In this document: piece by piece, positions 18,426-64,000 of the stretch
Position numbering within the stretch: the first letter of the stretch is position 1
How the letters are laid out: the number at the start of each line of letters is the position of its first letter
Source: Arcobacter nitrofigilis
GTDB taxonomy: Bacteria; Campylobacterota; Campylobacteria; Campylobacterales; Sulfurovaceae
DNA: 64,000 bases
Assembly: GCA_022736375.1 (NCBI GenBank)
Contig: DZCE01000002.1
Location: 732-64,731, forward strand
Reading direction: 5' to 3'
Made by a program: the position numbers and the translations under genes
Notes under the pieces: generated by a model
Told to the model about the DNA's origin: nothing
Database searches by the model: none
The model's input: the letters and a program-made list of their open reading frames with translations, nothing else

Positions 18426-20753
18426 TCACAATTTGAGACACTTGTTTAACTCAACACTTGGTAATGTCAGCCCAGTTTTATTAATAACATTTATATCGGA
18501 AAGTTTAATCATAGCTCCAGATTGATTACTTATATGACTTATTATAAATATCTGTCCGGTATTTTGAACATCTAGTATATTATTAATATTACTATATATT
18601 TTATCGCTATGTACCTCATCCATCGAAGATCCGAATTCGTCTAGAATTATTGGATAATCGTTTAAATCTAGTAGCTCCATTACAGTCAGCTTAAAGGCTA
18701 GATTTATTATATCTTTCATGGATGTGGACCCTTTCGATACATCACCACGATATACCCCATTTATAGTAAATGGAAATTCATAATTAATCCCCTTGAAGTC
18801 ATCGTCAGATATACCGGAACTTAGAAAATCCAGTTTTATATCATAGGCCCATATATCACTAAGTGTTTTATTTATCTTACCTACTATATAATCTAACGAA
18901 CTAGTCATTAAATTATCGACAGCTGTCTTAGCCTCTATGTATATAGCTGAAGTAACTTTCTTCTCCACAATAGTCTCTTCTATTTTTTTACTTACACTAT
19001 CTATGTCTCTTTTTATATTATCTACAATTATAAATTGTTCATTTAGCTCGGCTCTTTGGCTGATTAATTTTTCGATATCTTTCTTTATCAATACATCTAT
19101 GACTCTATCTATCTCTTGTAATTCATATTCTAGTACTGTCTTAGTAGCCATATCTATAAGATTAATATAATTATTTCTTTGTTCTAGTATATACTTAGAT
19201 CTCTCTAGTTCTGCTTTTAGATTATTACTCTTCTGTTCTACGATATACATTTTATTCGTTATTTCTTTTATTTCGGCTTTAATTCTAGATACTCTAGTTG
19301 TGTTATCATTATCTGATAGTATCTCGTCAATCTCTTTATATTTATCTACCAACGACGACCTATTTGTAATAGTTGTACTTAGTGTATTAATAAGTAGATC
19401 TCTTCTATCAGTATTAAATATGGATAGAATATCATTATCGCGAATATCTTCGAATAGTACATTTATAGTATTCACCCCTAGATTATATTTATCTATACTT
19501 TCCTTACGTCTAATCTTAATATTGGTTTCTTCTTGATGTAATCTATCCAGCTGCACCATTGATTCATTATATTCATTAATAGTGCCACATTTTACACAAG
19601 TTATCTTTTTTATCTTACTCCCATTTAGGGCTATACTACTTCGTATATCTATGAGATTATTATCTAATCTATCGATATCTGTTTTACCAATACGTATGTG
19701 TTCGGATATGATATTCCTAGTTACTGGTGACACCATTAGCCTATCTTCTATCGTATTCAATATTTCTGTATATAACTCTAATTGCCCTATATCCACTCCT
19801 TTTGGAAAACTTCCCACAATGATTCCTATCTCCTGTTCTATCAACGCCATACTAGATGAGTTGGTCCGGGCTAGGTCTTTATTTAGAGTATCTTTTTGAT
19901 CAGATAATTCTATATAATTTTTCTTTATAGATGACAGTTGTCCCATTATTTTGTTATCAAAGTGTTCAATTTCAGATACAGGTTGTATTACATAGTTTTC
20001 GAATTTCGATAGCTGTTCGGTTATCATTTTAACAAACGTATCTCTACTAATGTGTGTTGAGTTCTTAAGTAACTCTGTATGGAATCTTAATATGTCGTCT
20101 ATCTTATTGAGCTCTTCTTTGATTGCAGTATGTTCTTTTTCATTGTACATAAACATTAATTTATTTTTATCGTTAGTAAGCTTTTTGATATAGGTTGTTC
20201 TAAAGTTATCTACACTTCTTGCCTTATTGACAAACTCAATCGCATAGTCTATATCTAATATTCCTATTTTATTAAAAAGATCTTTTCTAGCTCTAGTGGA
20301 AGTATTTGTAAATTTAATTCTATTGTTTAATAGATCAACTATCGTAGTTGTTATACCAAATATATCTTTAATAAGTTGTAATTGAATAGTCTTGGTTCCG
20401 CCTTTATTAAGGTTATCCCCGTCTATAGTTTCGCTATTCTGAAATTTAACTAATCTTCCTATATCCGATGCATTAGAAAATATTGGATCTTTTATCATAA
20501 TACATTTTTGTAAGGTGTATTCTATATAATAGTAATGGTCGTTCTTGAATACTAATATTTTTTTGTATCCACTTTTAGAGTAATTTTCCTTGTTAATTGG
20601 CATTACATTTAGTTCTTCCCCTAATGATGATTTACCTGAACCATTTATTCCAATGATTAATTGAAATCTCTTGTCCGGGCGATATATGAGTGTATTTGAT
20701 TTTCCAAAATTTATTCGATTGTTCCCACCCAACTCCATTTTTACTATATTCAT
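18426..20753 (-). CDS. Rad50/SbcC-like SMC-type ABC ATPase with a central CxxC hook
   Basis: Walker A GINGSGKSS (aa 35-43). Long K/E/I-rich coiled-coil middle. CVKC at aa 386-389 of 775 (nt 19587-19598), exactly mid-protein. Signature-like SKGSTSM, Walker B PIILDEFGSSMD and H-loop IISHIS are present. Confidence 0.75.
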   Translation of the reverse strand: MNIVKMELGGNNRINFGKSNTLIYRPDKRFQLIIGINGSGKSSLGEELNVMPINKENYSKSGYKKILVFKNDHYYYIEYTLQKCIMIKDPIFSNASDIGRLVKFQNSETIDGDNLNKGGTKTIQLQLIKDIFGITTTIVDLLNNRIKFTNTSTRARKDLFNKIGILDIDYAIEFVNKARSVDNFRTTYIKKLTNDKNKLMFMYNEKEHTAIKEELNKIDDILRFHTELLKNSTHISRDTFVKMITEQLSKFENYVIQPVSEIEHFDNKIMGQLSSIKKNYIELSDQKDTLNKDLARTNSSSMALIEQEIGIIVGSFPKGVDIGQLELYTEILNTIEDRLMVSPVTRNIISEHIRIGKTDIDRLDNNLIDIRSSIALNGSKIKKITCVKCGTINEYNESMVQLDRLHQEETNIKIRRKESIDKYNLGVNTINVLFEDIRDNDILSIFNTDRRDLLINTLSTTITNRSSLVDKYKEIDEILSDNDNTTRVSRIKAEIKEITNKMYIVEQKSNNLKAELERSKYILEQRNNYINLIDMATKTVLEYELQEIDRVIDVLIKKDIEKLISQRAELNEQFIIVDNIKRDIDSVSKKIEETIVEKKVTSAIYIEAKTAVDNLMTSSLDYIVGKINKTLSDIWAYDIKLDFLSSGISDDDFKGINYEFPFTINGVYRGDVSKGSTSMKDIINLAFKLTVMELLDLNDYPIILDEFGSSMDEVHSDKIYSNINNILDVQNTGQIFIISHISNQSGAMIKLSDINVINKTGLTLPSVELNKCLKL

Positions 20754-20829
20754 TCTTTATCCCCTACCGATTATTCTTATCATTTAACCCCATATATAAA
20801 AAAAGAGAGAAATGTTATTTTTGGTAATA

Positions 20830-21924: not shown

Positions 21925-22596
21925 CTACAAATCGCTTACCAATCCCATTCCTTTTAAGTAAAAAACTATAGTTCTATTTACTTGGAATCCGTCACCATAC
22001 TTTTCTATAGCATCCTGACTACTAACTCCATGTAATCTAAGTGACTTTTCATGTGCTAGTGCTAATCCCCTATCGCCACCTCTGACAGCAGCAAATTCAT
22101 GTATTGGATAATTCTGATTATGACCGGATAAAATCATCATCTCCGAGAATGTTATCTTGGCCTTAGCTGAGGAAGCTGTCATTTGCCCTGTAACATTATC
22201 ATATTTATGACTATCTACGACAGATAACTTCTTCGAAGAGGTATGCGTTGTTCTCCTTACTGGGCATAATAAAACTTTATCTTCCTTAGGCGATATAACT
22301 TCAACATCTATATCAGGATCTACTATCCTGATATGGTGGTGTATTTTAACCCCTTTACTCTCAGCTGTCTTAATTAAAGTAGCTATAGGCACATTCATCT
22401 CATGTATAGGCATAACAAAGTTCAGTATCTCATCTCCACTTATTAACCTATCTATTAACTCGTTAAATTCTTTATCTGGTAGATTAAAAATATGATCTTC
22501 GTATAATTTGATATTCCTCTTATCCCCAAATGAAATCGTACTTATAGTCTCCCTGATATGCGCCTCTTGTTTTAATCTTTTAGAACTTTTTGCCAT
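21925..22596 (-). CDS. RNA polymerase beta-subunit extreme C-terminal fragment (tail piece of a split beta)
   Basis: The track start 22680 is over-extended; ATG 22596 (MAKSSK...) has a GGAGG SD. YDNVTGQMTASSAKAKITFSEMMILSGHNQNYPIHEFAAVRGGD aligns to bacterial RpoB [47 protein letters not shown]. The C-terminal IVFYLKGMGLVSDL aligns to FNVLLKEIRSLGINIEL. Confidence 0.65.
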   Translation of the reverse strand: MAKSSKRLKQEAHIRETISTISFGDKRNIKLYEDHIFNLPDKEFNELIDRLISGDEILNFVMPIHEMNVPIATLIKTAESKGVKIHHHIRIVDPDIDVEVISPKEDKVLLCPVRRTTHTSSKKLSVVDSHKYDNVTGQMTASSAKAKITFSEMMILSGHNQNYPIHEFAAVRGGDRGLALAHEKSLRLHGVSSQDAIEKYGDGFQVNRTIVFYLKGMGLVSDL

Positions 22597-22619
22597 AGCA
22601 ATGCCTCCAATATTTAATA

Positions 22620-22625
22620 TATCAA
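22620..22625 (-). promoter_or_regulatory. Promoter-like core TTGATA at -28 of ATG 22596 (beta tail-piece gene)
   Basis: Back-to-back with the plus-strand core TTGAGT at 22644-22649 (-30 of GTG 22675) in a 78-nt divergent spacer. Confidence 0.35.
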
Positions 22626-22674
22626 ATAATCTTTTATTTTTCGTTGAGTAAAAATTAATAAAAAGGGGAATATA

Positions 22675-23541
22675 GTGCATTCTAATATACTGAGAGTCGC
22701 GAATAAGGACTATGATAAACAGCGAAGTGATATATATTACGGTATTGATTTTGGCTATACCGCTATGTCTAATAATAGTCGGATAATGGGGTATCTAAAA
22801 TTTGTTGCGGATAGGTTGCGTGCAATCAAAAATTCGATCATGGATATATTTCCGAATATACTTGGTCCTGGTAATATAAAATTGATCAAAAATATAAAAA
22901 GTAAAACGAAAGATAGGAAAAGACTAGAAAAAATGTCTACTTATTTTGACATATCTCCTAGGTTAATAAATGTAATAGAAGGTCAGACTGTTGATCTAAA
23001 GACATTGGTCACAACTCTACACGGCATTCTATCTTACGATACTTTTTCACCTGGCCAATACTTAGATATGTTAACGGAAGCAATTGGGGATTTATCTAAT
23101 AGACCTGAGGAAGCCCACGCGTTTATAGGAAAGTACCAGTCTAGTATTACGATGTTACAGAAGATAAACAAAGAATCTAGTGGTGAAATATCAAAACTAT
23201 TTGAAGGTAAAGATGACCAGATGTCGATAGGAAAATTAATTCCTAATTATTCTACTTTATCTGAAACATTACCTATATTAGATTCGTTAACGTACCACCT
23301 AGAAATAGATAATATTCAGGAATTAAAATCTAAATCAGATGAGATTAATCAGCTTACTGATATCATGCTAAAACTCTACAACGAAAGTTCGATAACATTA
23401 AGTAGTAACTCCGCAGAGTATATTATATCTCTTACTGATGTTGTAATAGATAGACTTGGTATATATAATGACTTGATATATGTACTACTTAGAACATGTG
23501 AAATAACAGATAAGTTAATAACAGAGATTTATGAATATTAG
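22675..23541 (+). CDS. hypothetical protein, 288 aa, probable GTG start
   Basis: GTG 22675 with an AAAAGGGG SD 6 nt upstream. Isolated plus-strand gene. Its stop TAG is embedded in the shared hairpin 23539-23565. Confidence 0.6.
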   Translation: MHSNILRVANKDYDKQRSDIYYGIDFGYTAMSNNSRIMGYLKFVADRLRAIKNSIMDIFPNILGPGNIKLIKNIKSKTKDRKRLEKMSTYFDISPRLINVIEGQTVDLKTLVTTLHGILSYDTFSPGQYLDMLTEAIGDLSNRPEEAHAFIGKYQSSITMLQKINKESSGEISKLFEGKDDQMSIGKLIPNYSTLSETLPILDSLTYHLEIDNIQELKSKSDEINQLTDIMLKLYNESSITLSSNSAEYIISLTDVVIDRLGIYNDLIYVLLRTCEITDKLITEIYEY

Positions 23542-24267: not shown

Positions 24268-25689
24268 TTATATTTCTGAGTATGGATTTACTATTATATA
24301 GTTATCCTGGGCAGTTCTCCATATCATATAACTATTATCGCTTTTTGTATGAATGACAAACCAGTATATCAAACGCTTTCTATCCACTTGTCTTGTAATT
24401 AACGAAACAACTGGATTCATTTTCCTAATAGAAACCAGTGTGAATCTAGATACAATTCTATCCCCTAATGTCAACGGAATATTTAGTAGATTTTCATCAA
24501 TCCTGATTTTTATCGTTACCAGTCTAGCTCCAGGAGATATGTTACTCATATCTCCATTATTGAATATCTGATTGGTTATATCGGATATAACAAATGGTTC
24601 TTTTAGCATACCTAGAGTATATTTAGAGAGTATCTCGTTCATTTCTGGAAATATGTTATTCATAGTATGACTTATCATACCACTAGGTGAAACTCGATTC
24701 ACTATCATCGTAGATTCATCAAATGATAAATACTCGATATTCCTAAATATATTGTAGTCAAATATATTCGAATTAAAAGTCTTCATTAGACTTCTGACAG
24801 CCGGGATATTTACATTCTTAACATTCAATGTATTTAATGTCTTTAATGGATTTTTCTCTGCCCTTTTGTTGGAGTAAAACTCCATAATGGAGTTTATTGG
24901 TTCCACTGGCTCGTTAAGTTTAATCAACGTATAATACCCAGTTTGTGCCTCCCCAGTTATTCTCTTTTTGAATTTACCATCTGTGGGACTCGGTTTGGTT
25001 GAGAACGCGTCGTCGTATAGCACAGAATAGTACTCTCTATTTCTCTTCCAATCTTTATTCTTATCATTGTGAAAAAATACAAATTTTACATCACGCATGA
25101 ATGCATGTAGATTAGTCTCAGTATCATAATATATATATGATGGTAATACCTTGATGTAGTTTAGTAAACCTCCTTTATGCGCTATTTGCTTTATTTTTGA
25201 TGTAAGTTGGAAACCTAGATTTGATAGTTCTAACATACTAACTGGATGTATGTCAATGTTAGATATAAGGAAGTTGTTATTCACAGTTATGTTACTAAAA
25301 GTATTTATCTCATATCTTTCATTTATGTCCGACTTCACTATAACTATTATTTCCTCTACGCTGAACATAGTGAAGTCAGACATGTTAGGTATTATGTCTA
25401 GTATGGCCACTATTGTTGGCTTGATAACTTTATCGACTATAAACCACTCTAATGTTACTATATCGTCTACGATGTATTCTGTGTTGAATCCATCAAATAC
25501 AATATCTGGCGGCACAGATAAAGCCCTATTGTCGCTGTTCCTACTTATATACCCTTCCCTACCATTGTAACTAACACCTGACATTTTATTTGTATTTTTT
25601 CTTTGGTTAACCGTATCATATAGATAACCATGAAATGTTAATGTATTCTCTTCTTTATATATATCTACGTATAGAACAATTCTTTTCAT
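24268..25689 (-). CDS. hypothetical protein, 473 aa
   Basis: ATG 25689 with an AAGGAGAAG SD. Confidence 0.7.
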   Translation of the reverse strand: MKRIVLYVDIYKEENTLTFHGYLYDTVNQRKNTNKMSGVSYNGREGYISRNSDNRALSVPPDIVFDGFNTEYIVDDIVTLEWFIVDKVIKPTIVAILDIIPNMSDFTMFSVEEIIVIVKSDINERYEINTFSNITVNNNFLISNIDIHPVSMLELSNLGFQLTSKIKQIAHKGGLLNYIKVLPSYIYYDTETNLHAFMRDVKFVFFHNDKNKDWKRNREYYSVLYDDAFSTKPSPTDGKFKKRITGEAQTGYYTLIKLNEPVEPINSIMEFYSNKRAEKNPLKTLNTLNVKNVNIPAVRSLMKTFNSNIFDYNIFRNIEYLSFDESTMIVNRVSPSGMISHTMNNIFPEMNEILSKYTLGMLKEPFVISDITNQIFNNGDMSNISPGARLVTIKIRIDENLLNIPLTLGDRIVSRFTLVSIRKMNPVVSLITRQVDRKRLIYWFVIHTKSDNSYMIWRTAQDNYIIVNPYSEI

Positions 25690-26590: not shown

Positions 26591-26623
26591 ATAATATATG
26601 TTGGGTTACCCAACATATATTAT
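26591..26623 (-). terminator. Terminator hairpin overlapping the stop of the 623-aa gene
   Basis: 15-bp stem ATAATATATGTTGGG/CCCAACATATATTAT with loop TTA, followed on the minus strand by TTTTAAAATAA. Confidence 0.6.
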
Positions 26624-28491
26624 GAATATATATATAATGCCCCACTCTCCTCTATACTTTGTCTAGCTACTGAGCCGTTATTTAACCTAACGGTAACCGG
26701 CAACGGTTCTTTTAATTCATTAACTATCTCTTGGAATAATATAGTTCCATGTTCTCTATTGTAAATATAACATCCCGCCTCATTTCTATTAAAAAATGCT
26801 GTGTTACCATTTCTTAATAATACCGGATGGAATAACATATCTACATGTAGATTATAATTAATATATCCGACAACTGTGATTATCTTGGTGTTGGTATCTA
26901 ATCTATACACTGGTCCAGTTCCGTCTATAGACGAGTTACTATTTATGATTAATAACTCATCCCTATCTACCATTGCTATAGTGAGTGGACCGGTCGATAA
27001 CGTTGGATCTTTTAGATCGTATACTAATTCACTGTTTTTAGAATTTACATCCCATTTTAAAATTGAACGTCCTTGATTTGTATCACTAATAAAGTACACA
27101 AACTGATCTCCGGGACCTCTCGTTATTTTAGACGGGTGACAAGTTACTCCTAGATTTTCATTACTTCTTTCTAATTTGTTTTTGAAGCTGAATGTATTCG
27201 CACTATATTTAACAAATTGTAATACTATAATGTTATCATTCCTTAAAAATTCAACTACGAATGAATTATTGGTTATATTAAATATTTTGGAAACCCTCGT
27301 GATATTTAATTTCTCTTCCTTGGTAAACATATTTATCATTCTAAGACCACTATAACCTGTGCCGTCCTCTTTAAATTTCACGGAAAAGAAGTTAAATTTA
27401 TCTCTATCGAATATTATAACTCGTTCATCTATTAATCCTTCGGTGATAGTTTCTGTTGTATTGATAGCCAATGTTGAACCAATAAATTCCAATTGATTGT
27501 TATATTTAAGATCTTTATTTACGATAAATAGCTGTTCACCGATCGTTGTTGATAATTTGAAATCTATAAAAAGTGTATCAGTATGATATACGCGCACAAT
27601 CAAAATCCGGTTTTGTTGTAGAATATCGGCCGATATATCTATAGCGTCTCCGGCTATATTCTCTTCGATGTACGTTTTAACAAACATACTTGTATTTGGG
27701 TCAATAAGCGATACCTTCTTAATAGAACTACCTGATCTAACCCCGAACTTTACTATTTTGTTATATCGGCTATTTAATCCTGATATATTACTAACAAGCG
27801 TTATGCCTATATTAGACATGACGACCTCGTGTATCAATAGCGGGGTATCCATGGTTTCGGTATGCTGAATAGCCACTATTTTTATAACGTCTACTGTCAA
27901 GATATCGTCTATATCAAATGCTTGTTTATCAAACTTATATGATATAAGTTTTGTAGATTTTAATTCAGAGAAAATAACCTTGTCGTTCGAGGAATCCATA
28001 ATTACCCAGGATGTCGATAAATGCCCTTCCTTATCTGGACTTATTTTAGATATATTCATTGTGAAATATCTACTAGTCGTATCGTACAACATCTCCAAAT
28101 CAATACTTACCAATAACGGTTTTCGTAAGACTAACGGTGAGCGTATTACATTTGAAAAAAGATCCCAAGCCGTAGAGTTAATTGGCGCAGGTCCCTGCCA
28201 TCCTACAGGATCTATGAATTCGTTCCCTTCCGCATTGGTAAAAATTCTCCGATAGAACCAGTAATATGTATTCCCTACTGGAACACTCTTTTTTAAGATG
28301 TACTTGTACAAAAAGGAATCGTCGTTAGCTGTAGATTCAATATATGATTCTACTATGTCAGCCATAGCGACGGTATCTGGGGAGGATGGTTTATTTAAAA
28401 CCATCCATTCTGTTCGCCGCTGTAGCGTAGCTCCGACCTCTGATAATTCTTCTGTAGATAGCGATTGGATAATAAAAGTTTTTTGTGTCAT
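26620..28491 (-). CDS. hypothetical beta-rich virion protein, 623 aa (shares an N-terminal module with 51676-53589 and 41653-42618)
   Basis: ATG 28491 with a GAGGA SD. W..PAPI at aa 98-104, LVSI at 127-130 and FTM...DK...STSWVIMDSSNDKVIFSE at 143-176 parallel the 637-aa protein. The C-terminal half is made of repetitive beta-strand blocks. Confidence 0.55.
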   Translation of the reverse strand: MTQKTFIIQSLSTEELSEVGATLQRRTEWMVLNKPSSPDTVAMADIVESYIESTANDDSFLYKYILKKSVPVGNTYYWFYRRIFTNAEGNEFIDPVGWQGPAPINSTAWDLFSNVIRSPLVLRKPLLVSIDLEMLYDTTSRYFTMNISKISPDKEGHLSTSWVIMDSSNDKVIFSELKSTKLISYKFDKQAFDIDDILTVDVIKIVAIQHTETMDTPLLIHEVVMSNIGITLVSNISGLNSRYNKIVKFGVRSGSSIKKVSLIDPNTSMFVKTYIEENIAGDAIDISADILQQNRILIVRVYHTDTLFIDFKLSTTIGEQLFIVNKDLKYNNQLEFIGSTLAINTTETITEGLIDERVIIFDRDKFNFFSVKFKEDGTGYSGLRMINMFTKEEKLNITRVSKIFNITNNSFVVEFLRNDNIIVLQFVKYSANTFSFKNKLERSNENLGVTCHPSKITRGPGDQFVYFISDTNQGRSILKWDVNSKNSELVYDLKDPTLSTGPLTIAMVDRDELLIINSNSSIDGTGPVYRLDTNTKIITVVGYINYNLHVDMLFHPVLLRNGNTAFFNRNEAGCYIYNREHGTILFQEIVNELKEPLPVTVRLNNGSVARQSIEESGALYIYS

Positions 28492-28608: not shown

Positions 28609-28614
28609 TTGATA
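28609..28614 (+). promoter_or_regulatory. Promoter-like core TTGATA at -26 of ATG 28636
   Basis: Context ATTCTTACTTGATAATATAAA. Confidence 0.3.
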
Positions 28615-28635
28615 ATATAAAAACAGGAGACTACG

Positions 28636-33125: not shown

Positions 33126-33161
33126 ATAATAACACATTGGCCGAAACCAATGTGTTATTAT
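33126..33161 (-). terminator. Hairpin immediately after the probable capsid gene
   Basis: 13-bp stem AATAACACATTGG/CCAATGTGTTATT with loop CCGAAA, starting at the stop codon of 33161-35293. Confidence 0.55.
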
Positions 33162-35293
33162 TAGTTAATAATTCTGATTGATGGAGCGTCGGAATCTCTC
33201 AATGCTTCTTCTAGACCAGTCATTTCAATTACACCTGCAACTGGAGTAATGTTGAACCCGCCATATCTAGGGTAGATATTCGCCAGATGGTAAGTACCTC
33301 CAGTGCCACTACTTCTAGCGACAGAGCCAATGATGCTAGGTGATTTCAATCTGATTAATCCCGCGAATGGGTTGACTGCCGCTTCACCTAAAACGTCACC
33401 TCCCCGTGTTGGCATTGTAGACGACATAGTCAAAATAAGCAAGTCGGTGAACCGGCTATCCATAGTTCCATTAATTTTAATAATGATTTTCCCTGCATAC
33501 TCGTTATTTAATTTCTGAATAACTGGATCAAGGTATCTTTGGATTTTAGAAGACGTAGCGATCTTGACAATCGGTACATATTGTTGATTAATCTCTTTTA
33601 ATCTCTTCTCGAAATATGAATCGATTACCAAACTAATAATAGCAGTTTTTATATTATTACTAACCGATGACATTACCGCATCATATCGTGTATCAGATGA
33701 AAAACTCTTCGCACTAGAAACAACATCGAAATTGGAATACGTATAGTAGTTTCTATCTGTCCCGAATGTTGACGTTGTTATATCGGTTAGAGATAGCTCG
33801 GATGACTTCTTATTAGCTAGAATACCATCTTTAATTGTATATGCTAGTGTTAAAAGTTTGGTACGGAAATACTCTTCTTCTACCAAATTTGCAAATTGGT
33901 TACTGAATTTAATTTTTTCAGCTAGAGTGACACTTCTATTAAAAGATGGATCATTAAATGATTGTAATAATTCACGAACGCTAATAGGTGATTTAATTCC
34001 TAATCCTATATGTTGAGTTTTTCCCGAGAAATCAATTTGTGGCCCATTCTCTCTATAGGTATCATCTACAATTTTATAATCAGGAATCCAGCTTCTTAGA
34101 GTCATACTACTAGCGAAAGCCTTAACTGCATCGGTTGCCGGGATTTTTTTACCGTCACTATCCGTATATTTAACATCGTAATTGATCTGTGATATATTAA
34201 ATTTACCCAAACGTAAATCCCCACTAAGTGAAATTGTTGGGGTAATTTTAATCGTATAACCATCTGGAATCCAACTCAAGGCTTCTGCTGGTTTTCCCGT
34301 AGTAAAGTCATTATCTTTGTTCGTGAAGATAAATATAGGTGTTACGGCGGCGGCGACGGCGGTTGTTGCTCCGAATGCGGTTCCTGGTGCATGATTACCT
34401 GGTGAAGATAGTACATTGAAATTCATAATAGATTTCTTATTCGAGTCGTTTGGATCAACAATGTCATAATTAACCTCTTGTACTCTAATATTTCTGTCGA
34501 TAATAGCAAAAGCATCATGTCGTCCTTCCACATTGAGTAGAATATTCATACTATTTGCTAGCGTCGTTAAGTTAGGTTCTTTGTTTGCAAGGATAGGAGC
34601 CGTGTCTTTACCAGCAATCTTATCGTCTGCTTTTTTCAAAGCTACATCCAGATACGATTTATTTGTTTCTGTAACGTAAATCCTTACTGTATCCATGAAC
34701 AATGCTGTGAGAAGGTTGCCATCTGCAAGGTCAATATATAATTGAGAATCAATTCCGGATGTATCAAGTTCTGTTCTACTTTTATTAAACGTGATATTCA
34801 TAGCTACGTCATGTACAGCTGCGCCACCAGAGTCTGGTAAAACGTGAATAGTAGTAAAGGTTTCCTCTAGAAATGTGTCAGTGACACCACCGAGGCTATC
34901 AAAGATATAAGCCATATTTATGTTGGCGAATGAATCGAGATTACCGGCAACATCGGTATACTCACTCCCCTTCGCCATGACGACAATCTCCTGGACACTA
35001 CCATCAGGTCTATTTATATTAACTGTATGTCCGGTCTTATCTTTATATTTAGATAACATATATACTGTAATAGCTTGGATTGCGGAAGTAGTAGTTAAAG
35101 TTACTTGATTATTTTGCTCATCGTAAAACTGTCTACTAGCTAGAGACGTTGCTTGCGAGATGAGCACGTCTTCATAGTTACTATTTTTTTTTAACTCGTT
35201 ATAATCTGTGATTCCCCTGAGACCTAGCGCCGTTAATATATTATCTACGCAGTCCTTAACCTCGTTTGTGAAGATAGCATAATTTGTTGACAT
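33161..35293 (-). CDS. probable major capsid protein, 710 aa
   Basis: Strong AAAAAAGGAAAAA SD. Monocistronic between a promoter-like core and the 13-bp hairpin 33126-33161. Its size and its position two genes upstream of the compact beta-N match the phiKZ gp120 (MCP)-gp123 order as recalled. No direct motif proof. Confidence 0.45.
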   Translation of the reverse strand: MSTNYAIFTNEVKDCVDNILTALGLRGITDYNELKKNSNYEDVLISQATSLASRQFYDEQNNQVTLTTTSAIQAITVYMLSKYKDKTGHTVNINRPDGSVQEIVVMAKGSEYTDVAGNLDSFANINMAYIFDSLGGVTDTFLEETFTTIHVLPDSGGAAVHDVAMNITFNKSRTELDTSGIDSQLYIDLADGNLLTALFMDTVRIYVTETNKSYLDVALKKADDKIAGKDTAPILANKEPNLTTLANSMNILLNVEGRHDAFAIIDRNIRVQEVNYDIVDPNDSNKKSIMNFNVLSSPGNHAPGTAFGATTAVAAAVTPIFIFTNKDNDFTTGKPAEALSWIPDGYTIKITPTISLSGDLRLGKFNISQINYDVKYTDSDGKKIPATDAVKAFASSMTLRSWIPDYKIVDDTYRENGPQIDFSGKTQHIGLGIKSPISVRELLQSFNDPSFNRSVTLAEKIKFSNQFANLVEEEYFRTKLLTLAYTIKDGILANKKSSELSLTDITTSTFGTDRNYYTYSNFDVVSSAKSFSSDTRYDAVMSSVSNNIKTAIISLVIDSYFEKRLKEINQQYVPIVKIATSSKIQRYLDPVIQKLNNEYAGKIIIKINGTMDSRFTDLLILTMSSTMPTRGGDVLGEAAVNPFAGLIRLKSPSIIGSVARSSGTGGTYHLANIYPRYGGFNITPVAGVIEMTGLEEALRDSDAPSIRIIN

Positions 35294-36526: not shown

Positions 36527-36562
36527 AAAAGAGCTATACCATTAATTTGGTATAGCTCTTTT
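36527..36562 (-). terminator. Terminator after the paralogue triplet
   Basis: 15-bp stem AAAAGAGCTATACCA/TGGTATAGCTCTTTT with the stop TAA (36542-36544) in the loop. T-rich 3' side on the minus strand. Confidence 0.65.
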
Positions 36563-39897: not shown

Positions 39898-39906
39898 ACC
39901 GTCCCC

Positions 39907-42691: not shown

Positions 42692-43489
42692 TTATTGTTC
42701 TAGTTTTTGATCTGTCAATGGAATGGTGTCGTCTATAGTACACGGAACGGAATCCTCAGTTTGTCCACTAGTGGTGGTAGATTTTGTACTATTTTTTTTA
42801 TTAAGTATCTCGTTAAGTCTCTCCCTACCGGCGACACTACCTGGTAGCTGGATATTATCCGGTGGTGTGATATTTAGAATCCTTGGTTCGGAGTTATTAA
42901 TAACAGCTTCTTGTTGAAATGATTGCGTTTCAATATTTGCTTGTAGTTTCGCTAATATTGTCATAAATCTAGATATCTCCTCATCTCTCGATGCTATTTT
43001 CGACTCTATCAATTCATCGTAGGTTACACTTTCAATCTTGAATACTTTAGGATTCTCCAATATAGTATCTAATACGTTAGTATTCTCTTCGAATATCTCA
43101 AATATCTCTATATTATTAGGCGTCTCCCCAGCATCTCTTTTCGAATTAACTATCCACCCTCTAACCACTTTTAACTTTACGGAATCTAAAAAGAACCTAT
43201 TATAATCTGAAAATGGGGTCTCCACATCTATACTATCTATATAAATATTTCCTACCGTTGTTACTTTCAACATAGTATCTTTACGATTGCGATACGCATC
43301 CTCAAAGTCCATATAAATAAACTCAAATTCGTCAGGTGATACTGTCACTAGAGAAGGTCCAGTTTCCTCCTCAATCAACAACATAGCTACTGATTTTACC
43401 ACATGTTGCCCGTCTTTATGTCCGATTGTTAATAATAAATCATTTTTTCCTATATCTATCCCGTACTCTTTTTTGAATCTAGAACTCAT
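42692..43489 (-). CDS. hypothetical protein, 265 aa
   Basis: The track start is 43519. ATG 43489 (MSSRFKK...) follows GAAGGAGG by 7 nt. Confidence 0.65.
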   Translation of the reverse strand: MSSRFKKEYGIDIGKNDLLLTIGHKDGQHVVKSVAMLLIEEETGPSLVTVSPDEFEFIYMDFEDAYRNRKDTMLKVTTVGNIYIDSIDVETPFSDYNRFFLDSVKLKVVRGWIVNSKRDAGETPNNIEIFEIFEENTNVLDTILENPKVFKIESVTYDELIESKIASRDEEISRFMTILAKLQANIETQSFQQEAVINNSEPRILNITPPDNIQLPGSVAGRERLNEILNKKNSTKSTTTSGQTEDSVPCTIDDTIPLTDQKLEQ

Positions 43490-43517
43490 TTCTAATCCTC
43501 CTTCATATATTTTATTC

Positions 43518-43523
43518 ATTCAA
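43518..43523 (-). promoter_or_regulatory. Promoter-like core TTGAAT at -33 of ATG 43489
   Basis: Context GATTATTTGAATGAATAAA. A second copy, TTTGATAAG, lies 13 nt further upstream, right after the T9 terminator tail. Confidence 0.35.
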
Positions 43524-43534
43524 ATAATCTTATC

Positions 43535-43577
43535 AAAAAAAAATAGTACCGGATGTTACCTAGGTAACATCCGGTAC
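43535..43577 (-). terminator. Strong intrinsic terminator
   Basis: 32-nt perfect palindrome GTACCGGATGTTACC|TAGGTAACATCCGGTAC (43546-43577), followed on the minus strand by TA + T9. Confidence 0.8.
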
Positions 43578-45489: not shown

Positions 45490-45528
45490 TAAAAAATAAT
45501 AATCTGCTGAGGGAATACCCATCAGCAG
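45490..45528 (-). terminator. Intrinsic terminator after the RNAP beta-C/beta'-C pair
   Basis: CTGCTGAGGG-AATA-CCCATCAGCAG (45504-45528, one bulge) with the stop TGA (45522-45524) in the stem. The minus strand continues ATTATTATTTTTTATTTAT. Confidence 0.7.
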
Positions 45529-47420
45529 TTCAACATAATATCACCAGGGTGTGGATCTTTATTACTAGAATAGGTCTGTTCGTTAGGAAACATCCAATGT
45601 AACAAACCTCCTAATAAGAAAGCGATATAGATATTCGAAGTACCTAATCTTCTCTCGTAATTGATAATTATACCATCATCATCATTTGTTAACGTTGGAT
45701 TTTTTAGCGATTTGACGTAAATCGACTTTACTATCAACGATGTAAAGGAGTACGGAATGAACATCTTACTAAGCATAAATGCATGTAGCTCATCCAAGAG
45801 AGTATATTTATCCATTCCCGTTGCCGCGGCACCGACCAGAATAGTCTCAAACTCTCTTGGAGTTGTCTCTAGACTTATTCCGATATTTGGTAACTTAAAG
45901 ACCGGAACGTCCTCCTTTAATGCCAGTATATTATTTAAATATATTTTATATACCGATTTATTGGCCACCACATTACCAATCTTACCAATCAATCTTAACA
46001 TAAAGAGAGTAAATGATAGTTTCTTTACATTTGTTGACGCGATAATAACAGTTTGTCTGCGCCTACTACCAGTTATCTTATCGATAATCTCTAACTCAAA
46101 TTGTTTAATTCTTGAATATGAATTTATATCCTTAGAAATATACTTTTCGGAAAATGTTATATTACTCACCGGAATATTTATATTATAATTGTTTTTGTTT
46201 AGATTGAACCAAGATTTATCCATATATACATTACCGTCATCACCGATGGTAAATATGTTTTTGGCGACGCCTTTAAAAATATACTCTTCTTCTTTAGAAC
46301 TACCCATATGATGTTTTTGTCCTATAATAAGTTGACTCATTATCTCTATAAAATATTGCGACACAAAGAGCCCTAAATTATATACAGGTGGTATATTATG
46401 GGTTAGTTCACCTAAACATACTGAACATATTTTCTTAGGATCATTCAGTTTACACCCTGAAGGATGACGGACTCTAATAGTATGCCCGATATAACTAGAA
46501 GACTCTTTCACATCCATAACCCGCAGTCTCGATAGACTATCATCCGTGAAGTATGATCCAACTAACGATACGTGATTTTTATCAGTCACGTCTATACTGG
46601 CGTACTCCTCAGATCCACAATCTCCATTGACGAACTCCACGAAAAACATCAATAATAGTTTCATAAGCTTACCGAAATACTCGGAGTCGGCGATAGCTCC
46701 CTTTTTAGCTCTCTGCGCTATAATAGTACTGTAACTATCTACTATATACGTATACGCATCGTAATGCCCTAATGCATAACTAGTAGCTATTGGTTTCCGT
46801 AGGATTTTCTTATTTATGTCCGATCTAAAACCAATAGGTCCGACGGTTGTTAATAATTGTTGCTGACGTACCAAACCGGCTAAGTATGATTGTCCCACAG
46901 GGGTACCGGCATACTTAGTACTAAGTAATCTATGCGTGATATCATATGCCTCATTAACGGCCCTTGGGGTCTGATCGTCATATATCCTTTCAATCGCCGA
47001 AATCAACTCTTCGTCGCATTGAATGTTTAGAACATCAATTATATCATAACATATGACATAGTTACTTACATGAAATGCTTGATTGTAATATGTCGATTTC
47101 ACATTTCTTATTGCACTAAGAAATGTATATTCGTCGATACCACTTCCACCTCTCCTGTAATCTGTTATAACGGCACCCATAGCTAGATTGACTGCCGTTT
47201 CGTCAAAAAAATCTCCTTTATAGAAATTCCCTATAAGATATCTTGAAGACTGTTTTAATCCAATTGTATTTACCAGCGACCATATAGGAATATTTAAAAC
47301 TATCTCATCTTTCCTCAATTCAACCATTTTATCGTCGAATAATATACTATGACTACCTGATATTCCGTCTTTAGCCTTATCCATACTTATTTGCCCTATT
47401 ATGTTAGCTGATAGAACCAT
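45522..47420 (-). CDS. RNA polymerase beta'-subunit C-terminal fragment (bridge helix to trigger loop)
   Basis: [20 protein letters not shown] resembles beta' [45 protein letters not shown] resembles IRSxxxCxxxxGVCxxCYG. [26 protein letters not shown] resembles [33 protein letters not shown] SD; the start overlaps the beta-C gene by 17 nt. Confidence 0.8.
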   Translation of the reverse strand: [632 protein letters not shown]

Positions 47421-49452
47421 TATTCCCCTCCTCTTCTTGTGTTAATTCTATTCCATACATAGACAATATGAATTTAGTTCGCTCAATAGCACTATCATGC
47501 ACTGGAACGTCGTTCTCATCAATTAAGTTCTCCGTGACATTATTATAGTTCTTAATCATATTATGATACATCACCATATAATACTTTGGACTACTTAACG
47601 CCGATATGAATAACCGTAAGTCTTTTCTTTCGGCGTTAGTCCATGCTAGGAGTAATAATACTTCTTGTTCACTAAGGAACTTTGGTGCGGCCGCTGAAAA
47701 GTTTCCGGAATTAGAATTATTCTTGGTGCCGCTACTGGGTTTACCATTAGGTCTAAAAAATGGTGCTGTGGAGTTCATCATTTCATCTGGTGATTTGCCT
47801 AACAGAAAGAAGTCTAGTTTATAGACCCCTATAATATATTTTGATAATTTACCGTCTATGGTGACACGTTCCCTAGGGACAGCGTACTCGGACTCGGCAA
47901 TACGTATAACCTTCTCCGCGGAAATGTCATTGAAATCAAAGGATAATATAGTTCTAAAGTCACCTTTGTTCGCTGTTTCTACGAGTATCTTTTTAGCCTC
48001 GTAATTTGACTTTATCGAGTCCAGCATGGTAATCGCATTAGCCTCACCTAATAGTTCAATATGTCTATATATTATATCAAATCCACCGGCAATAGATTCT
48101 TCACTGAACCCTCCATTTTTCCAAATATACTCCTTAACTCTATCGTTACATAAACTAATAAACTTTGAGAAATAAGCATGATACATAATACCTATATTTT
48201 GACGCGATATTACGGATTCTACAGGGATAACTATATCTACACCTTCCGGGATATTCTCAGAGTTTTCTACGATGTTGGATACTATTCCTTTACTACCAAA
48301 CTGAGAGGTTACCTTACCTCCTATGTCAGGTATCGTCGGAAACGCCACCGTGACTTCGATATAGAAGTGAGGTAGCTTTGATTTTTTAGCATATAGCGTC
48401 CTATTATCTTTAGGACCATTTACTATACCTAAGGCATCGAGAGTTATTTTTGTAAAGTGTTTGGATACATTACCCTCCCTGATATATTTATCGTGCAACC
48501 TTATAATCGATTGTAAGAATTCTATCTCTAGTTCCGCATAGTATTCCAATTGATCGTGTATAGTGTGGTAACCCACCGGCTTTGTAGAGTTTTTAGTTTG
48601 AGATATCACAAATATATCTATAACCTCACCACCATTTTTAGATAAGACGTTTAACATCCCTAAACTTGTTAAATCTTGAAGATCATTATGCTCTGTTAAA
48701 GTCTTTGTCATCTTTTCATATAAGTCAAAGCTAGGATCAGTAGTTATTTTTGAACAAAGAATACCATCTTCTCTAACTTTAGATCCAACATCAGGCAACG
48801 GGCTACCATTGTTTATTTGAGCTAGAATATCTTTAGCATTCACCTCTATAATGTATTTTTTGATATAAGAGAATTCCAATTTCTCCTGGGCTCGTTTCGA
48901 TATCACTATACCATCCTCGTTACTATTTAACGGCGATATAAATGCTACGTTTAACGTTACAGACTGAGTGTATTGATCATTAATTACATTCGGTATAGTT
49001 GTAAAATTATCACCCTTATTAAAGAACTTCCCAGGTCGTAGATCCTTATTATATCTATGTAATAATCCGTACTTACCGTCTGTAGACGTATACGGCACTA
49101 TGATCTCGGCGCCAACATTTCCATCCACATCTATATAAACAATGAGTGTCTTCATTATTATATTACCATGTTTCTTATTAACAACCTGTAGAATCTGTAG
49201 ATCATTAGACGCCTTATATGCATGTGTAGCATCGCCCATCATTTTCTCCATCCCAGTAAGTATTAGTCCCTTATCTGGGTTATTTAACGGTACTCCCTGA
49301 GAATGTGTGACGTTTAAACCCATCGCTAGTCTAGGCGAAGATACATGTACTCCATTTGGTATAGTTGCTCCTAATCCAAGAACTCTCTTCGTTAGAGGTA
49401 CAGCTTCCGGATCCCTTTTAATAAGTTTACCTTGACGACTTTCTTCCACCAT
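47404..49452 (-). CDS. RNA polymerase beta-subunit C-terminal fragment
   Basis: [30 protein letters not shown] resembles RpoB ANRALMGSNMQRQAVPL...[29 protein letters not shown] resembles [31 protein letters not shown]...[17 protein letters not shown] resembles GNKGVVSKI...[32 protein letters not shown] resembles [15 protein letters not shown]. Confidence 0.85.
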   Translation of the reverse strand: [682 protein letters not shown]

Positions 49453-49636: not shown

Positions 49637-49642
49637 TTGATA
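49637..49642 (+). promoter_or_regulatory. Promoter-like core TTGATA at -27 of the transglycosylase ATG 49665
   Basis: Context GTTCTTCTTTGATAAGATT. Confidence 0.3.
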
Positions 49643-49664
49643 AGATTACATAAAGGAGAACATA

Positions 49665-53589: not shown

Positions 53590-53620
53590 GAATTCTCCTT
53601 TTTTTAAAAAAATAAAATAT

Positions 53621-53626
53621 TATCAA
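53621..53626 (-). promoter_or_regulatory. Promoter-like core TTGATA at -36 of GTG 53589
   Basis: Context ATATTCTTTGATAATATTTTA, 17 nt after the hairpin 53643-53672. Confidence 0.3.
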
Positions 53627-58128: not shown

Positions 58129-58905
58129 TCATCGTACGTACAGCTGTTCCAGGCTTCTACGGGCCGATAATTCAGCCATTAAAATATCCGGTAGATTAGC
58201 CACCTGCGATAACATTGTAGCCGTTAGCCCGCCTGAACATACACCGTCTATACATATAGAATTGGTCATAGATAACGCGGCGTAGTCCATCGAATCTCTT
58301 TTATTGGCGCCGTCATATGCCCCGCGTAAAACCTGGTCCCAGGTGATAACCCTAGTGAATCTTCTTACCTCGTTACCACCGACCATGGTTTTCTTAGCGA
58401 AACCTCTTATAGACATTGATGTATTTGAGTATGGGTTCTTCAGTGTCTCTAAAAATTGAGAGCCAAAATTACCTTCTGGTTTCAATCTTAATACTATAAG
58501 AATGATATTACCGGTAGATTCGACACATCTCGTATCTTTCTTACCGATATCGACGGCTAATATATCCTTAATGTGTGCAGACTTTCTATCTATTAGTATA
58601 GTACTCAGACGAGCAGCAACCACTTGATCAGGCGTACCAGGTGGTACCTGCGGGTGATCTAGCTCTGATGACAACACCCCTTTATCGAGATAATCCATCA
58701 ACTGTGTATTTTTACCGAAAATCTCTGATGTATACGGGAATGATACCCAATGTCCAGGGGCCATCTCCACGGCCACATTAAATGCCCCAGCGTTTATTAA
58801 CCAGTACCCATTTTCATCAGGTGAAAAATCACCAACTAACAACGACGCATATTGCGGATCCTTCTTCTTTAGCTCTTCTTGTGTCTGTACTCTAATTTCT
58901 ATCAT
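58129..58905 (-). CDS. prohead (maturation) serine protease, T4 gp21 family
   Basis: GVLSSELDHPQVPPGTPDQ (His84) matches T4 gp21 QALGELNHPPRANVDP. NTSMSIRGFAKK matches GVSSRGLGS (catalytic Ser). 258 aa. Sits three genes from a virion-type RNAP beta gene, as recalled for phiKZ gp175-gp178. Confidence 0.75.
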   Translation of the reverse strand: MIEIRVQTQEELKKKDPQYASLLVGDFSPDENGYWLINAGAFNVAVEMAPGHWVSFPYTSEIFGKNTQLMDYLDKGVLSSELDHPQVPPGTPDQVVAARLSTILIDRKSAHIKDILAVDIGKKDTRCVESTGNIILIVLRLKPEGNFGSQFLETLKNPYSNTSMSIRGFAKKTMVGGNEVRRFTRVITWDQVLRGAYDGANKRDSMDYAALSMTNSICIDGVCSGGLTATMLSQVANLPDILMAELSARRSLEQLYVR

Positions 58906-61134: not shown

Positions 61135-64000
61135 CTATTTTATACTAGATAAAGCCCTACTTCTTTCACTTAAATACGTTAAGAGTATTCCATTTACAAT
61201 AACACTATTAACAATACGTTTATCTAATGAGATACTACTATATGTGATCTCAACCTCATTACCATTCTCGTCGTACGTCTTACATTTCGAGACTTTTCCG
61301 TCTATATCTTCATTGTCGGATTCGGAATCAACAGTTCTACCTAATGTACACTTTAACTGCGTCCCTATAATTAACTTATCGGCAACCTGCATAGGGGATA
61401 AATCAGTATCGACATATACAGCTATATATACCTCATCGTCGAGCATTGTGCTACCATTAATAGAAAATCTAGATTTAATCTGCCCAGTTACACCCTCCCT
61501 AGACATCGTAACCTTATCAGCCTCATTAATAACCTTTCTTAATGTACCTGTCAATTTAGATACTTCACATTTATAGTAACATACTATTCTAGATATAGTC
61601 CCTGTAACCGAATACTTTGGAACGTCGGATTTCAAATTTATTAAACTTTCATATGCTTTAGAATCCCCCCTAACCATATCTATATCGATTGGTTCTCCAG
61701 TTATAACCATTACTGGATCGCCGGCTAGTACGCGTTGACCGACTTCGCGTAATCCGGCTATATTTTTATTAGACATTGTTCTAATACTGGAAACAACTGT
61801 TTTCTTCACGGACATCCTCGATAGGATATCTGGATCTACTTCAACAGAATCTTCCCAACTACCATGTGACTCAGCAAACCGTACCCTAGCCAATTTACCA
61901 GTCTTCATCGACACCTCTTTCTTATTAAAAAAATCTGGTTGAAAGAAAGAAGTATTATGGGTTATATTCTCTCCAGCTTTTATTACGTCCCCGACTTTCC
62001 TTATCGTGACAATATCAAAAGTATTACAGATAGAATCCTCGATCTTAGATGTGTACTTACCAAGAAAGTACTTTTTCTTTTTTTTAGTATCAAGATATTC
62101 AACGATGATGTATAAATCCTCATTTATCTCGATGACCTTACAATCTGTGATTGCGTTTATACACATGTTCTCATCTAGTTTATTACCTATGATCTTCTCA
62201 CCGTATGTTCTTAATGGTAACGTAATCTCACCATCCATAGGAAATAGACCGGTACCCTGAGTGGTGGCGAAATTGGCACGTTTACCATCATCTAGGTGTA
62301 TATTAGGTAATGTCATACTAATTGAATCGTATATCTCCGATATATGAAGATCCTTCCCTGACGTATCGAACACTCCACGATTATTTATAATGCGTGGGTT
62401 AGCACTCCTAAAGAATGTAATACCTGAGTCGCCATTATCTCTAACTGACAGTGAGGCTAATCCTAATGACGTTGAGTGGTAAAATCTAGTCGGTATGACC
62501 ATCGACTCTTTTGCCCTACCTTGATGGCCCATATACGTTATATCGGATTTTTGTCTCACTACAGCATATGGGTTAGCGTCGTCTCTGAGCATTACAGTAC
62601 TATCTGAAGTAAGCAGATCCCATGTATCATATGGAGCTATCTTTATTGGTTTACTACCAAAACTATCATAGTTAGATGCTGCCTTTACATTTTGAGACAA
62701 TACTTTATATAACATACTAGGGATCAATTCCCTACCACGTAATCTTGTATCCGTCATATCTGTTAGCGCTTTGACCTTATTCACCGTTAAAAGTCTATTT
62801 GCCTCAATACATATTCCCTCTACCGTCAGTGGCATATTTAACTCTTCGAGTACGCTAAGCGTTATCTTGTCTATAAGAAGTTTCTTGAGGGACATAGTCT
62901 CTTTATATACTTTTCTTGGAAACCCGATAATATCGTCGAAGTTAGCTATAGCAACAGCACCCTCTAATCCATATTTAACATTCTTTAAAAATTTCATTTT
63001 CTTTGTAATACCATTTAATATAAGTCTACTCTGAAGTTTAATATCAGTTATGAATACATGCATATCTGCGAATTTTATAACCATCTCATCTTCTCGTAAC
63101 TCATCGTATGTTCTCTTTGGTGGAGTGACCGTATAGTCTACATTAAGTAATTTTAATGTCTTTGTAAACCCTAACAAATTTATCAAGAATATAAATAATG
63201 GTATTTTTTCTCCGGCAAGCATAATGTAACTATATGTTTTATCGGATACCCTTGATACCCCTGTCAGTTCATATAAATCCGCAACTTTGGTTAATTTTTT
63301 ATCCCGATATACATGTAAGGTATCGTCGCTCTTAACGAACAACTCATCCCCCTCATATGTCCCACATAAGATATACCCCTGAGCCTCAATCTCTAATGCC
63401 TTATCCTTATTCAAATTCTCGATTACAGAGAATCTATTATTGTAAGAGAAAAATAGCTCAAATCCGTTTAAATTATAGTAACTAAAACTTTTGGCAGATA
63501 GCATATATAAATAGGACATCTCTACATCTGTCGGTAGGTTAACCTTCTCGCTTAACAAATAAAGTTCTGTAGATTGCATGACCGCCATTTTTACAGATAC
63601 ATCGCTAGACATTGTACTTTTAATAAACAACTTTGTGAAGTTTGTAGTTAATAATACAGAGTCTTCAGCTACTTTACGTATAGGTAGATCAAGTATCTGC
63701 CCGCGCATACAATAGATATTACCAAAGATCTTAAATGTTCCATCTTCATGTAACCTTGGTAGATTCTGAACTATCTTATGCTCACCGAACCCAGGAATGT
63801 ATGTTGATATACTTATCTTATCATAGTCTGTAACAGCGTCTTTATGGTTTTCTATCTCAACATCTGTAACAATAACCCCATGTGATTCTATTGATGTAAT
63901 CGCCGCTAGTATGTCTTTACTATATAACTTATCGACATACCCTAAGTCAAATTCAAGACCTCTGTCGCTTTTAGAAGAATCCTTAAGGAATCCGTCCCTG
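61135..64000 (-). CDS. RNA polymerase beta-subunit, long N-terminal-to-region-H fragment; 5' end lies beyond the right edge
   Basis: The frame stays open from 63708 up to 63999 (hand-translated ...RDGFLKDSSKSDRGLEFDLGYVDKLY...NIYCMRGQ), so the track Met is internal. MGHQGRAKESMVIPTRFYHSTSLGLASLSVRDNGDSGITFF resembles RpoB ALGPGGLxRERAGxEVRDVHxSHYGRxCPxETPEGxNxGL. DDGKRANFATTQGTGLFP resembles ANRALMGSNMQRQAVP. VRFAESHGSWEDSVEV resembles VAFMPWNGYNFEDAILI. ADKLIIGTQLKCTLG resembles GDKxAGRHGNKGV. Confidence 0.75.
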   Translation of the reverse strand, partial: RDGFLKDSSKSDRGLEFDLGYVDKLYSKDILAAITSIESHGVIVTDVEIENHKDAVTDYDKISISTYIPGFGEHKIVQNLPRLHEDGTFKIFGNIYCMRGQILDLPIRKVAEDSVLLTTNFTKLFIKSTMSSDVSVKMAVMQSTELYLLSEKVNLPTDVEMSYLYMLSAKSFSYYNLNGFELFFSYNNRFSVIENLNKDKALEIEAQGYILCGTYEGDELFVKSDDTLHVYRDKKLTKVADLYELTGVSRVSDKTYSYIMLAGEKIPLFIFLINLLGFTKTLKLLNVDYTVTPPKRTYDELREDEMVIKFADMHVFITDIKLQSRLILNGITKKMKFLKNVKYGLEGAVAIANFDDIIGFPRKVYKETMSLKKLLIDKITLSVLEELNMPLTVEGICIEANRLLTVNKVKALTDMTDTRLRGRELIPSMLYKVLSQNVKAASNYDSFGSKPIKIAPYDTWDLLTSDSTVMLRDDANPYAVVRQKSDITYMGHQGRAKESMVIPTRFYHSTSLGLASLSVRDNGDSGITFFRSANPRIINNRGVFDTSGKDLHISEIYDSISMTLPNIHLDDGKRANFATTQGTGLFPMDGEITLPLRTYGEKIIGNKLDENMCINAITDCKVIEINEDLYIIVEYLDTKKKKKYFLGKYTSKIEDSICNTFDIVTIRKVGDVIKAGENITHNTSFFQPDFFNKKEVSMKTGKLARVRFAESHGSWEDSVEVDPDILSRMSVKKTVVSSIRTMSNKNIAGLREVGQRVLAGDPVMVITGEPIDIDMVRGDSKAYESLINLKSDVPKYSVTGTISRIVCYYKCEVSKLTGTLRKVINEADKVTMSREGVTGQIKSRFSINGSTMLDDEVYIAVYVDTDLSPMQVADKLIIGTQLKCTLGRTVDSESDNEDIDGKVSKCKTYDENGNEVEITYSSISLDKRIVNSVIVNGILLTYLSERSRALSSIK

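Follow-up and report, generated by a model that had tools for sequence, protein, structure and literature searches.

Why would a genome devote a separate gene to what looks like the tail end of an RNA polymerase (RNAP) beta subunit? The question is raised by a minus-strand gene for a protein of 223 amino acids (aa), located at positions 21925–22596 of a 64,000-nucleotide (nt) stretch of contig DZCE01000002.1 (assembly GCA_022736375.1, filed under Arcobacter nitrofigilis). The whole stretch is referred to here as the window, and all coordinates are given relative to it. With a probability of roughly 0.9, the 223-aa protein is the C-terminal beta subunit (beta-C) of the virion RNAP (vRNAP) of an uncultivated jumbo phage, phiKZ-like (“group 1”) but highly divergent, that encodes two multisubunit RNAPs, one packaged and the other a non-virion enzyme (nvRNAP).

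The protein belongs to a family that is widespread among jumbo phages. It matches PHROG 3233 (“RNA polymerase beta subunit”) over its full length, at E 1e-36 and across profile positions 3–222 of 225, and tblastn aligns it at 25–31% identity with 215 jumbo-phage records, which include those of phiKZ-like Pseudomonas phages and of phages infecting Erwinia, Salmonella, Ralstonia, Vibrio, and Bacillus. For example, KTN4, a phage of the species Phikzvirus phiKZ, encodes the 224-aa protein KTN4_185, which is 31% identical to the window protein (E 3e-26), falls in PHROG 3233 itself (E 4e-98), and is labeled “putative beta/beta'-like virion-associated protein”. Since its gene lies three genes after the tail-fiber gene, KTN4_185 is by position the ortholog of phiKZ gp149. 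When 1.84 billion representatives were searched exhaustively with HMMER, 444 homologous clusters emerged, most with members of 217–235 aa and none above 35% identity; the identity of the 223-aa protein to any known or metagenomic relative is 23–34%. A word-index homolog search with the protein alone returned only itself. Structural matches in BFVD consist of jumbo-phage proteins of 222–225 aa, with E-values down to 8e-15, together with some proteins of 676–683 aa. The family residues R114, R115, Q138, E152, E167, R172, G173, G174, D175, and G190 are all kept in the window protein, and the motifs RR, TGQ, PE, and RGGD of beta region I are present in it, as they are in phiKZ gp149 and SPN3US gp218, two full-length members of the same PHROG with lengths of 224 and 222 aa.

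The relationship of this family to the bacterial beta subunit is a collinear but remote homology. A profile of the RpoB C-terminus was built by adding 80 proteobacterial RpoB C-termini, giving 81 sequences in all, and hhalign aligned the 223-aa protein with it over 170 columns at a probability of 89% (E 2.2e-6). Residues 10–189 fall on E. coli beta 1137–1311 in this alignment, and KYDNVTGQMTASS...FSEMMILSGHNQNYPIHEFAAVRGGD is put on a 48-residue stretch of RpoB. At relaxed thresholds the alignment runs from end to end, with residues 1–223 on E. coli beta 1128–1339, and sets the last helix, IVFYLKGMGLVSDL, against FNVLLKEIRSLGINIEL in low-confidence columns only. An initial annotation of this DNA had assigned the product by eye to the extreme C-terminus of beta, and both of its alignments were reproduced in register, the one of the last helix solely in those low-confidence columns. 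At the level of individual motifs, TQQP...GEME...LQE.L.VKSDD of RpoB is aligned to TGQ...SEMM...HEF..VRGGD of the phage protein. In hhalign against E. coli RpoB alone the E-value was 3.3e-4, and hmmsearch with a family profile made from 101 homologs (A1) matched beta from E. coli, Xanthomonas, and Thermus at the C-terminus only.

Comparison of predicted structures points the same way. An AlphaFold2 model of the 223-aa protein, built with 82 homologs, has a mean predicted local distance difference test score of 77.5, and the PDB chains ranked 1 to 44 in a Foldseek search with this model are all RNAP beta chains, the best being the nvRNAP beta-C of phage AR9 (7s01_C, probability 0.91). On these alignments the 223-aa protein is the counterpart of the final ~215 residues of bacterial beta (E. 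coli 1128–1339, region I), that is, of the segment that extends to residue 1342 in E. coli and is covered by Rpb2_7 and the end of Rpb2_6. In contrast to bacterial beta, where this segment closes a chain of 1100–1400 aa, it is a separate polypeptide here, with ~16–18% identity to its bacterial counterpart.

If the tail is a separate protein, the rest of the subunit should be found elsewhere, and the gene that enters the window from its far edge (61135→64000+) has the properties expected of this N-terminal piece (beta-N). Its product aligns with positions 568–1414 of the 1424-position phrog_3148 profile (E 1.4e-134) and, by tblastn, with 295 jumbo-phage records, among them an SPN3US-type gp241 ortholog and KTN4_219, a 1451-aa gp178 ortholog labeled “beta/beta'-like virion-associated”. 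The product carries the lysines of the double-psi beta-barrel (DPBB; ADKLIIGTQLK) and a PSRM-equivalent motif, LDKRI, and its C-terminus, ...VEITYSSISLDKRIVNSVIVNGILLTYLSERSRALSSIK, is reached 25 residues past the latter. A phmmer search of this beta-N piece against PDB sequences gave no match, and no structure of a vRNAP turned up in the copy of the PDB that was searched. For a family profile, the window sequence and nine annotated orthologs were aligned over their last 330 residues. DK....NQ.K and S...R(I/M)V are common to all ten sequences, and every one of the ten proteins ends 20–37 residues after the PSRM-equivalent motif. Against RpoB (E 7.4e-5), the profile places the motifs on GDK1065MAGRHGNK1073 and PSRM1105–1107 of E. 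coli. A single-sequence hhalign of the beta-N C-terminus against RpoB was discarded for its wrong register (E 0.14), which the ten-sequence profile resolved.

When the end of beta-N and the 223-aa protein are concatenated, they align without a break to E. coli beta 1086–1179 (single-sequence E 4e-3), with “...SSIK” of beta-N at ~1127 and “MAKS...” of beta-C at ~1128. The two pieces therefore tile beta with neither gap nor overlap, and the alignment sets the split of the vRNAP beta between regions H and I, near E. coli beta 1127/1128. The initial annotation had described the long gene as a beta lacking exactly this tail and had proposed a cut after region H; the reach of the phrog_3148 match, the position of the stop, and the seamless junction all agree with that description. 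The genes of the two pieces are 38.5 kb apart (22596 to 61135), close to the ~39 kb first given. The tail gene had been called an orphan with an unusual position. The distance is instead ordinary, since the vRNAP beta genes of KTN4 are 27 kb apart, and such separation is the norm for the beta-C family.

Several results weigh against the assignment of the 223-aa protein to beta. The Pfam models RNA_pol_Rpb2_6 and RNA_pol_Rpb2_7 do not detect it even at E 10. No match to PDB sequences was obtained by phmmer, and hmmsearch of the whole PDB gave E-values of 0.13–1.4, which are not significant by themselves, as opposed to 2e-6 in the directed comparison. The TM-scores of the Foldseek matches are low (0.30–0.36), with large root-mean-square deviations, and are weak as stand-alone evidence; low values are expected, since an extended piece was modeled without its partners. 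Q118, nearly invariant in the gp149/gp218 family, is H in the window protein. The frame of the beta-N gene is open to base 63999, so the gene continues beyond the window with its N-terminal part outside, and the open reading frame (ORF) start at 63708 is an artifact of the window's edge. Finally, the evidence on expression, virion content, and assembly comes from relatives, this phage being uncultivated. As its homology to bacterial beta is seen only by profile–profile and structure comparison, the 223-aa protein is best described as a remote homolog and not as a member by the Pfam criterion. IF2_N, the only Pfam match (E 0.13), was rejected as a chance hit.

Another reading is that the protein is a structural component of the virion with no role in transcription and that its likeness to beta is fortuitous. 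Many records label homologs as a “putative virion structural protein” and others as a “hypothetical protein”, and the absence of a Pfam match would fit. This explanation is extremely improbable: the profile alignments are collinear over 170–207 columns and fall exactly at the beta C-terminus, 44 consecutive Foldseek matches are beta chains, the protein abuts exactly on the end of beta-N, and the phiKZ ortholog co-immunoprecipitates with vRNAP subunits (Gp149 with tagged Gp180; PMC10612078).

The beta-C assignment also has to be considered against the second polymerase, whose beta subunit is encoded in the window in two pieces of its own. The product of the C-terminal piece (47404–49452) matches phiKZ chain 7ogp_C (E 3.9e-10), AR9 chain 7s00_C (E 1.4e-9), and Pfam RNA_pol_Rpb2_6 (E 7.5e-10), and BLASTP aligns it with E. 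coli RpoB 657–1128 (E 4e-9), starting just before ANRALMGANMQRQAVP of region E. Its DPBB motif, GGKVTSQFGSKG...SRQNIG, occupies residues 378–424 and is followed by 256 residues of its own tail, which includes a GEME-like segment, KFLSEQEV. The N-terminal piece belongs to phrog_2943 (E 1e-24), as does the KTN4 gp123 ortholog (E 7e-209), and its gene lies two genes beyond that of the major capsid protein, a position shared with KTN4. Searches with this 512-aa product by phmmer against PDB sequences and by tblastn against phages gave no match, and its identity consequently rests on PHROG membership and synteny. Alignment thus puts the nvRNAP beta split at about E. coli 640–657, with region D on one side and region E on the other, in agreement with the initial annotation. 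That two paralogous betas of one genome are cut at different places was likewise borne out, and is already published for related phages, in which the split sites of vRNAP and nvRNAP beta differ and the subunit genes are scattered (PMC7598289, PMC7824862). The homology of beta-C to the beta C-terminus, the complementarity of the two vRNAP beta pieces, and the presence of a second, differently split beta are in this way established at the level of sequence.

The tail of the nvRNAP beta-C, as seen in phiKZ gp71–73, in AR9, and in the window, is the paralogous region of the second polymerase; it is covalently continuous with the DPBB, whereas the vRNAP tail is separate. In hhalign, the family profile finds a local match at the expected place of the window nvRNAP beta-C, at a non-significant E-value of 0.41. 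Could the 223-aa protein then serve the nvRNAP, or both polymerases, instead of the virion enzyme? Its paralogy with the nvRNAP tail, the AR9 nvRNAP beta-C as best Foldseek match, and the 676–683-aa proteins among the BFVD matches might be read in this sense. Such service is nonetheless very improbable. The window nvRNAP beta keeps its own 256-residue tail with the GEME-like segment, and therefore has no need of the 223-aa protein. In addition, the purified and solved phiKZ nvRNAP consists of five subunits, gp149 not among them (PMC8287921; PDB 7ogp), and gp149 and gp218 were found in virions and vRNAP pull-downs (PMC10612078, PMC5105663).

The assignment to the virion polymerase agrees with what has been published for relatives. 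The vRNAP of phiKZ is composed of gp178, gp149, gp180, and gp80 (PMC8287921), and both alpha and omega are missing from the enzyme (PMC7598289). In SPN3US, gp218 is the betaC subunit; it is detected by mass spectrometry of virions, and is lost when the betaN subunit gp241 is absent (PMC5105663). The window phage resembles these systems in having a beta-N of ~1400 aa that ends just after the DPBB and PSRM-equivalent motifs. It differs from phiKZ in the neighbors of the beta-C gene, which are an SbcC-like gene and unknown genes here and tail and virion genes in phiKZ.

By analogy with phiKZ and SPN3US, the window beta-C would be made late, would assemble with beta-N and three beta'-like pieces, the counterparts of gp180, gp80/gp42, and gp176/gp244, before being built into the head, and would be packaged and then injected with the DNA, where it would be required for transcription of early genes. 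Beta-C and beta-N, the latter contributing the two catalytic-site lysines of the DPBB, together tile a complete beta. Region I of beta comprises the anchor, switch-3, and part of the clamp. In cellular RNAPs it sits beside the RNA–DNA hybrid and, jointly with the beta' N-terminus, makes up a portion of the clamp. Given this location, beta-C should be essential for a closed, active enzyme.

The limits of the gene follow from its translation start. The minus-strand ORF spans 21925–22680 and in its longest form would give a 251-aa product. The ATG at 22596 (MAKSSKRL..., 223 aa) is the credible start, since GGAGG precedes it by 7 nt, the PHROG 3233 match starts with residue 5 when counted from this Met, and the N-termini of homologs align to its Met, M1 being invariant in the family alignment. 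The 251-aa reading would, moreover, overlap a divergent plus-strand gene of unknown function (22675–23541), with a GTG start at 22675 that is preceded by AAGGGG. If that GTG is indeed the start, the back-to-back spacer of 78 nt noted previously is real. This spacer presumably holds the promoter or promoters of the flanking genes; a promoter scan revealed no sigma-70-like site within it, as expected of a phage that uses its own RNAPs. The gene had also been called monocistronic, a description that did not hold up: on the same strand, a 328-aa gene follows after 72 nt and the SbcC-like gene after another 112 nt, and a scan around the beta-C gene revealed no terminator-like site on its strand. 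A hairpin of 12 pairs (4 G-C) with a 5-nt loop lies within the beta-C coding sequence at 22308–22336; a scan that permits G-T pairs marked it as terminator-like, but on the antisense (+) strand. The features of the window are collected in Table 1.

Table 1. Features of the window with their proposed identities.
Feature	Position	Strand	Basis or remark
vRNAP beta-C gene (223 aa; phiKZ gp149 / SPN3US gp218 ortholog)	21925..22596	-	PHROG, hhalign, Foldseek, BFVD
Ribosome-binding site GGAGG	22604..22608	-	7 nt upstream of ATG 22596, sequence reading
Divergent AT-rich intergenic spacer, 78 nt, between beta-C gene and 22675-23541 (+)	22597..22674		
vRNAP beta-N gene, 3' part, 954 codons (phiKZ gp178 / SPN3US gp241-like)	61135..64000	-	phrog_3148, tblastn, profile
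nvRNAP beta-C (phiKZ gp71-73-like)	47404..49452	-	7ogp_C, 7s00_C, Pfam, BLASTP
nvRNAP beta-N (phiKZ gp123-like), 512 aa, putative start codon	30417..31955	-	phrog_2943, synteny
nvRNAP beta'-C (phiKZ gp74-like), adjoins nvRNAP beta-C gene as in phiKZ	45522..47420	-	7ogp_D (PHIKZ074) E 1.3e-19; phrog_3015
SbcC-like ATPase	18426..20753	-	core phiKZ-like gene
Ribonuclease	24268..25689	-	core phiKZ-like gene
phiKZ-type major capsid protein	33161..35293	-	core phiKZ-like gene
Head maturation protease	58129..58905	-	core phiKZ-like gene

A short motif recurs near gene starts in the window. TTGATAAGATTA occurs exactly at 43525–43536 (-) and 49637–49648 (+), in both cases just upstream of gene starts, and near copies are located upstream of genes at 28609–28620 (+), 53615–53626 (-), and 20772–20783 (-). 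Another near copy, AAGATTATTTGA, lies ~25 nt before the beta-C ATG. The enrichment of the motif is modest (43 matches with at most two mismatches, versus 27 expected), and it may be a phage promoter element. At the gene 42692–43519 (-), the ATG at 43519 lacks a Shine-Dalgarno sequence, and TTGATAAGATTA lies 5 nt upstream of it, after a terminator-like GC-rich hairpin and T-run. The start codon of this gene may be mis-set, or its mRNA may carry only a short leader or none. Many large neighboring ORFs, for instance those at 36542–41640, 26620–28491, and 51676–53589, have no PHROG match, which marks the phage as highly divergent. The G+C content rises to 0.41 at 56001–58000, compared with 0.31–0.37 elsewhere, within an ORF for a 745-aa virion-protein-like product (55881–58118, phrog_3181).

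The beta-C module is not confined to small proteins. Among the best 150 of the 444 representative homologs, it forms the C-terminal end of a longer protein in 25. In several metagenomic clusters (P0016, P0017, P0036, P0043, P0052, and P0118), it is found at the extreme C-terminus of SNF2-family helicases, and in P0016 the SNF2 part (residues ~181–461) is interrupted by an intein (Hom_end-associated Hint and LAGLIDADG). Homologs of 379–830 aa (P0005, P0027, P0073, P0077, P0085, P0089, P0102, and P0137) have other N-terminal partners, namely an HD-hydrolase-like domain (phrog_23439, AR9-type), a crotonase/enoyl-CoA-hydratase-like domain (phrog_1128), and the unknown families phrog_14325, phrog_3921, and phrog_20637. 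On a 318.6-kb IMG/VR contig (L084, 6365–14191, plus strand), a single uninterrupted ORF of 2608 aa joins a GNAT acetyltransferase, an SNF2 helicase, an HD domain, and beta-C, and its last 222 residues match the beta-C family at E 7e-43. The long homologs (926–1914 aa) were also considered as unsplit betas and rejected as such, none of the 25 being a fusion with beta-N, as BLASTP to the window beta-N found nothing and the Pfam matches were to SNF2 helicase, intein, and DUF5662. Of these fusions, HD-betaC is known from AR9-like Bacillus jumbo phages, and the vRNAP subunits of the AR9/PBS1 type bear an N-terminal HD phosphohydrolase domain (PMC7598289). Their beta-C module is the same, phrog_23439 overlapping PHROG 3233 in its members, whereas the window protein has no extra domain. 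No report of an SNF2-betaC fusion was found in the literature searched.

The fusions suggest a different emphasis, in which the module acts mainly as a docking adaptor on the vRNAP core and its placement in a separate gene lets phages swap accessory enzymes into the virion, the window form being “empty”. The proportion of long proteins among the best homologs, the range of partners (SNF2 helicases, an HD hydrolase, a crotonase-like domain, and three unknown families), the uninterrupted 2608-aa ORF on a viral contig, and the known HD fusion of AR9-like phages (PMC7598289) all speak in its favor. It is compatible with the beta-C assignment, and adds to it. As the main role of the module it is unlikely, however: the region-I motifs are retained, the vRNAP core needs the module whatever its cargo because beta-N is without region I, about five-sixths of the representatives are bare proteins of ~220 aa, and the arrival of fused domains in the virion is an assumption. 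A tentative combination of the two ideas, doubtful at present, is that the beta-C tail is a universal plug, one that makes the catalytic core whole and at the same time fastens accessory enzymes to the polymerase that is injected. If so, a remodeling ATPase resembling RapA or NPH-I would be a covalent vRNAP subunit in the lineages with SNF2 fusions, and the bare module here would bring in such factors without a covalent link, if it did so at all.

With the 223-aa protein read as vRNAP beta-C, the gene adds a new, very divergent member to a known family, and the arrangement is a correct rediscovery, since publications on phiKZ, SPN3US, and their relatives already give the whole picture (PMC7598289, PMC5105663, PMC7824862). 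Split betas, differing cut sites, dispersal of the genes over tens of kb, and packaging of the enzyme in the head were all described between 2014 and 2021. For this contig, the result identifies its source as a phiKZ-like jumbo phage that is very divergent and has both polymerase sets, gives a name to a protein left hypothetical by Pfam and simple BLAST, and fixes the split of its vRNAP beta at approximately E. coli beta 1127/1128. For the family, the recurrent fusion of beta-C to SNF2 helicases and other enzymes is a lead possibly worth the attention of specialists. From phyletic patterns and gene neighborhoods, Iyer et al. predicted in 2021 that the group-1 SNF2 helicase is functionally linked to the RNAP (PMC7824862), and the SNF2-betaC fusions would turn this predicted link into a directly testable physical association.

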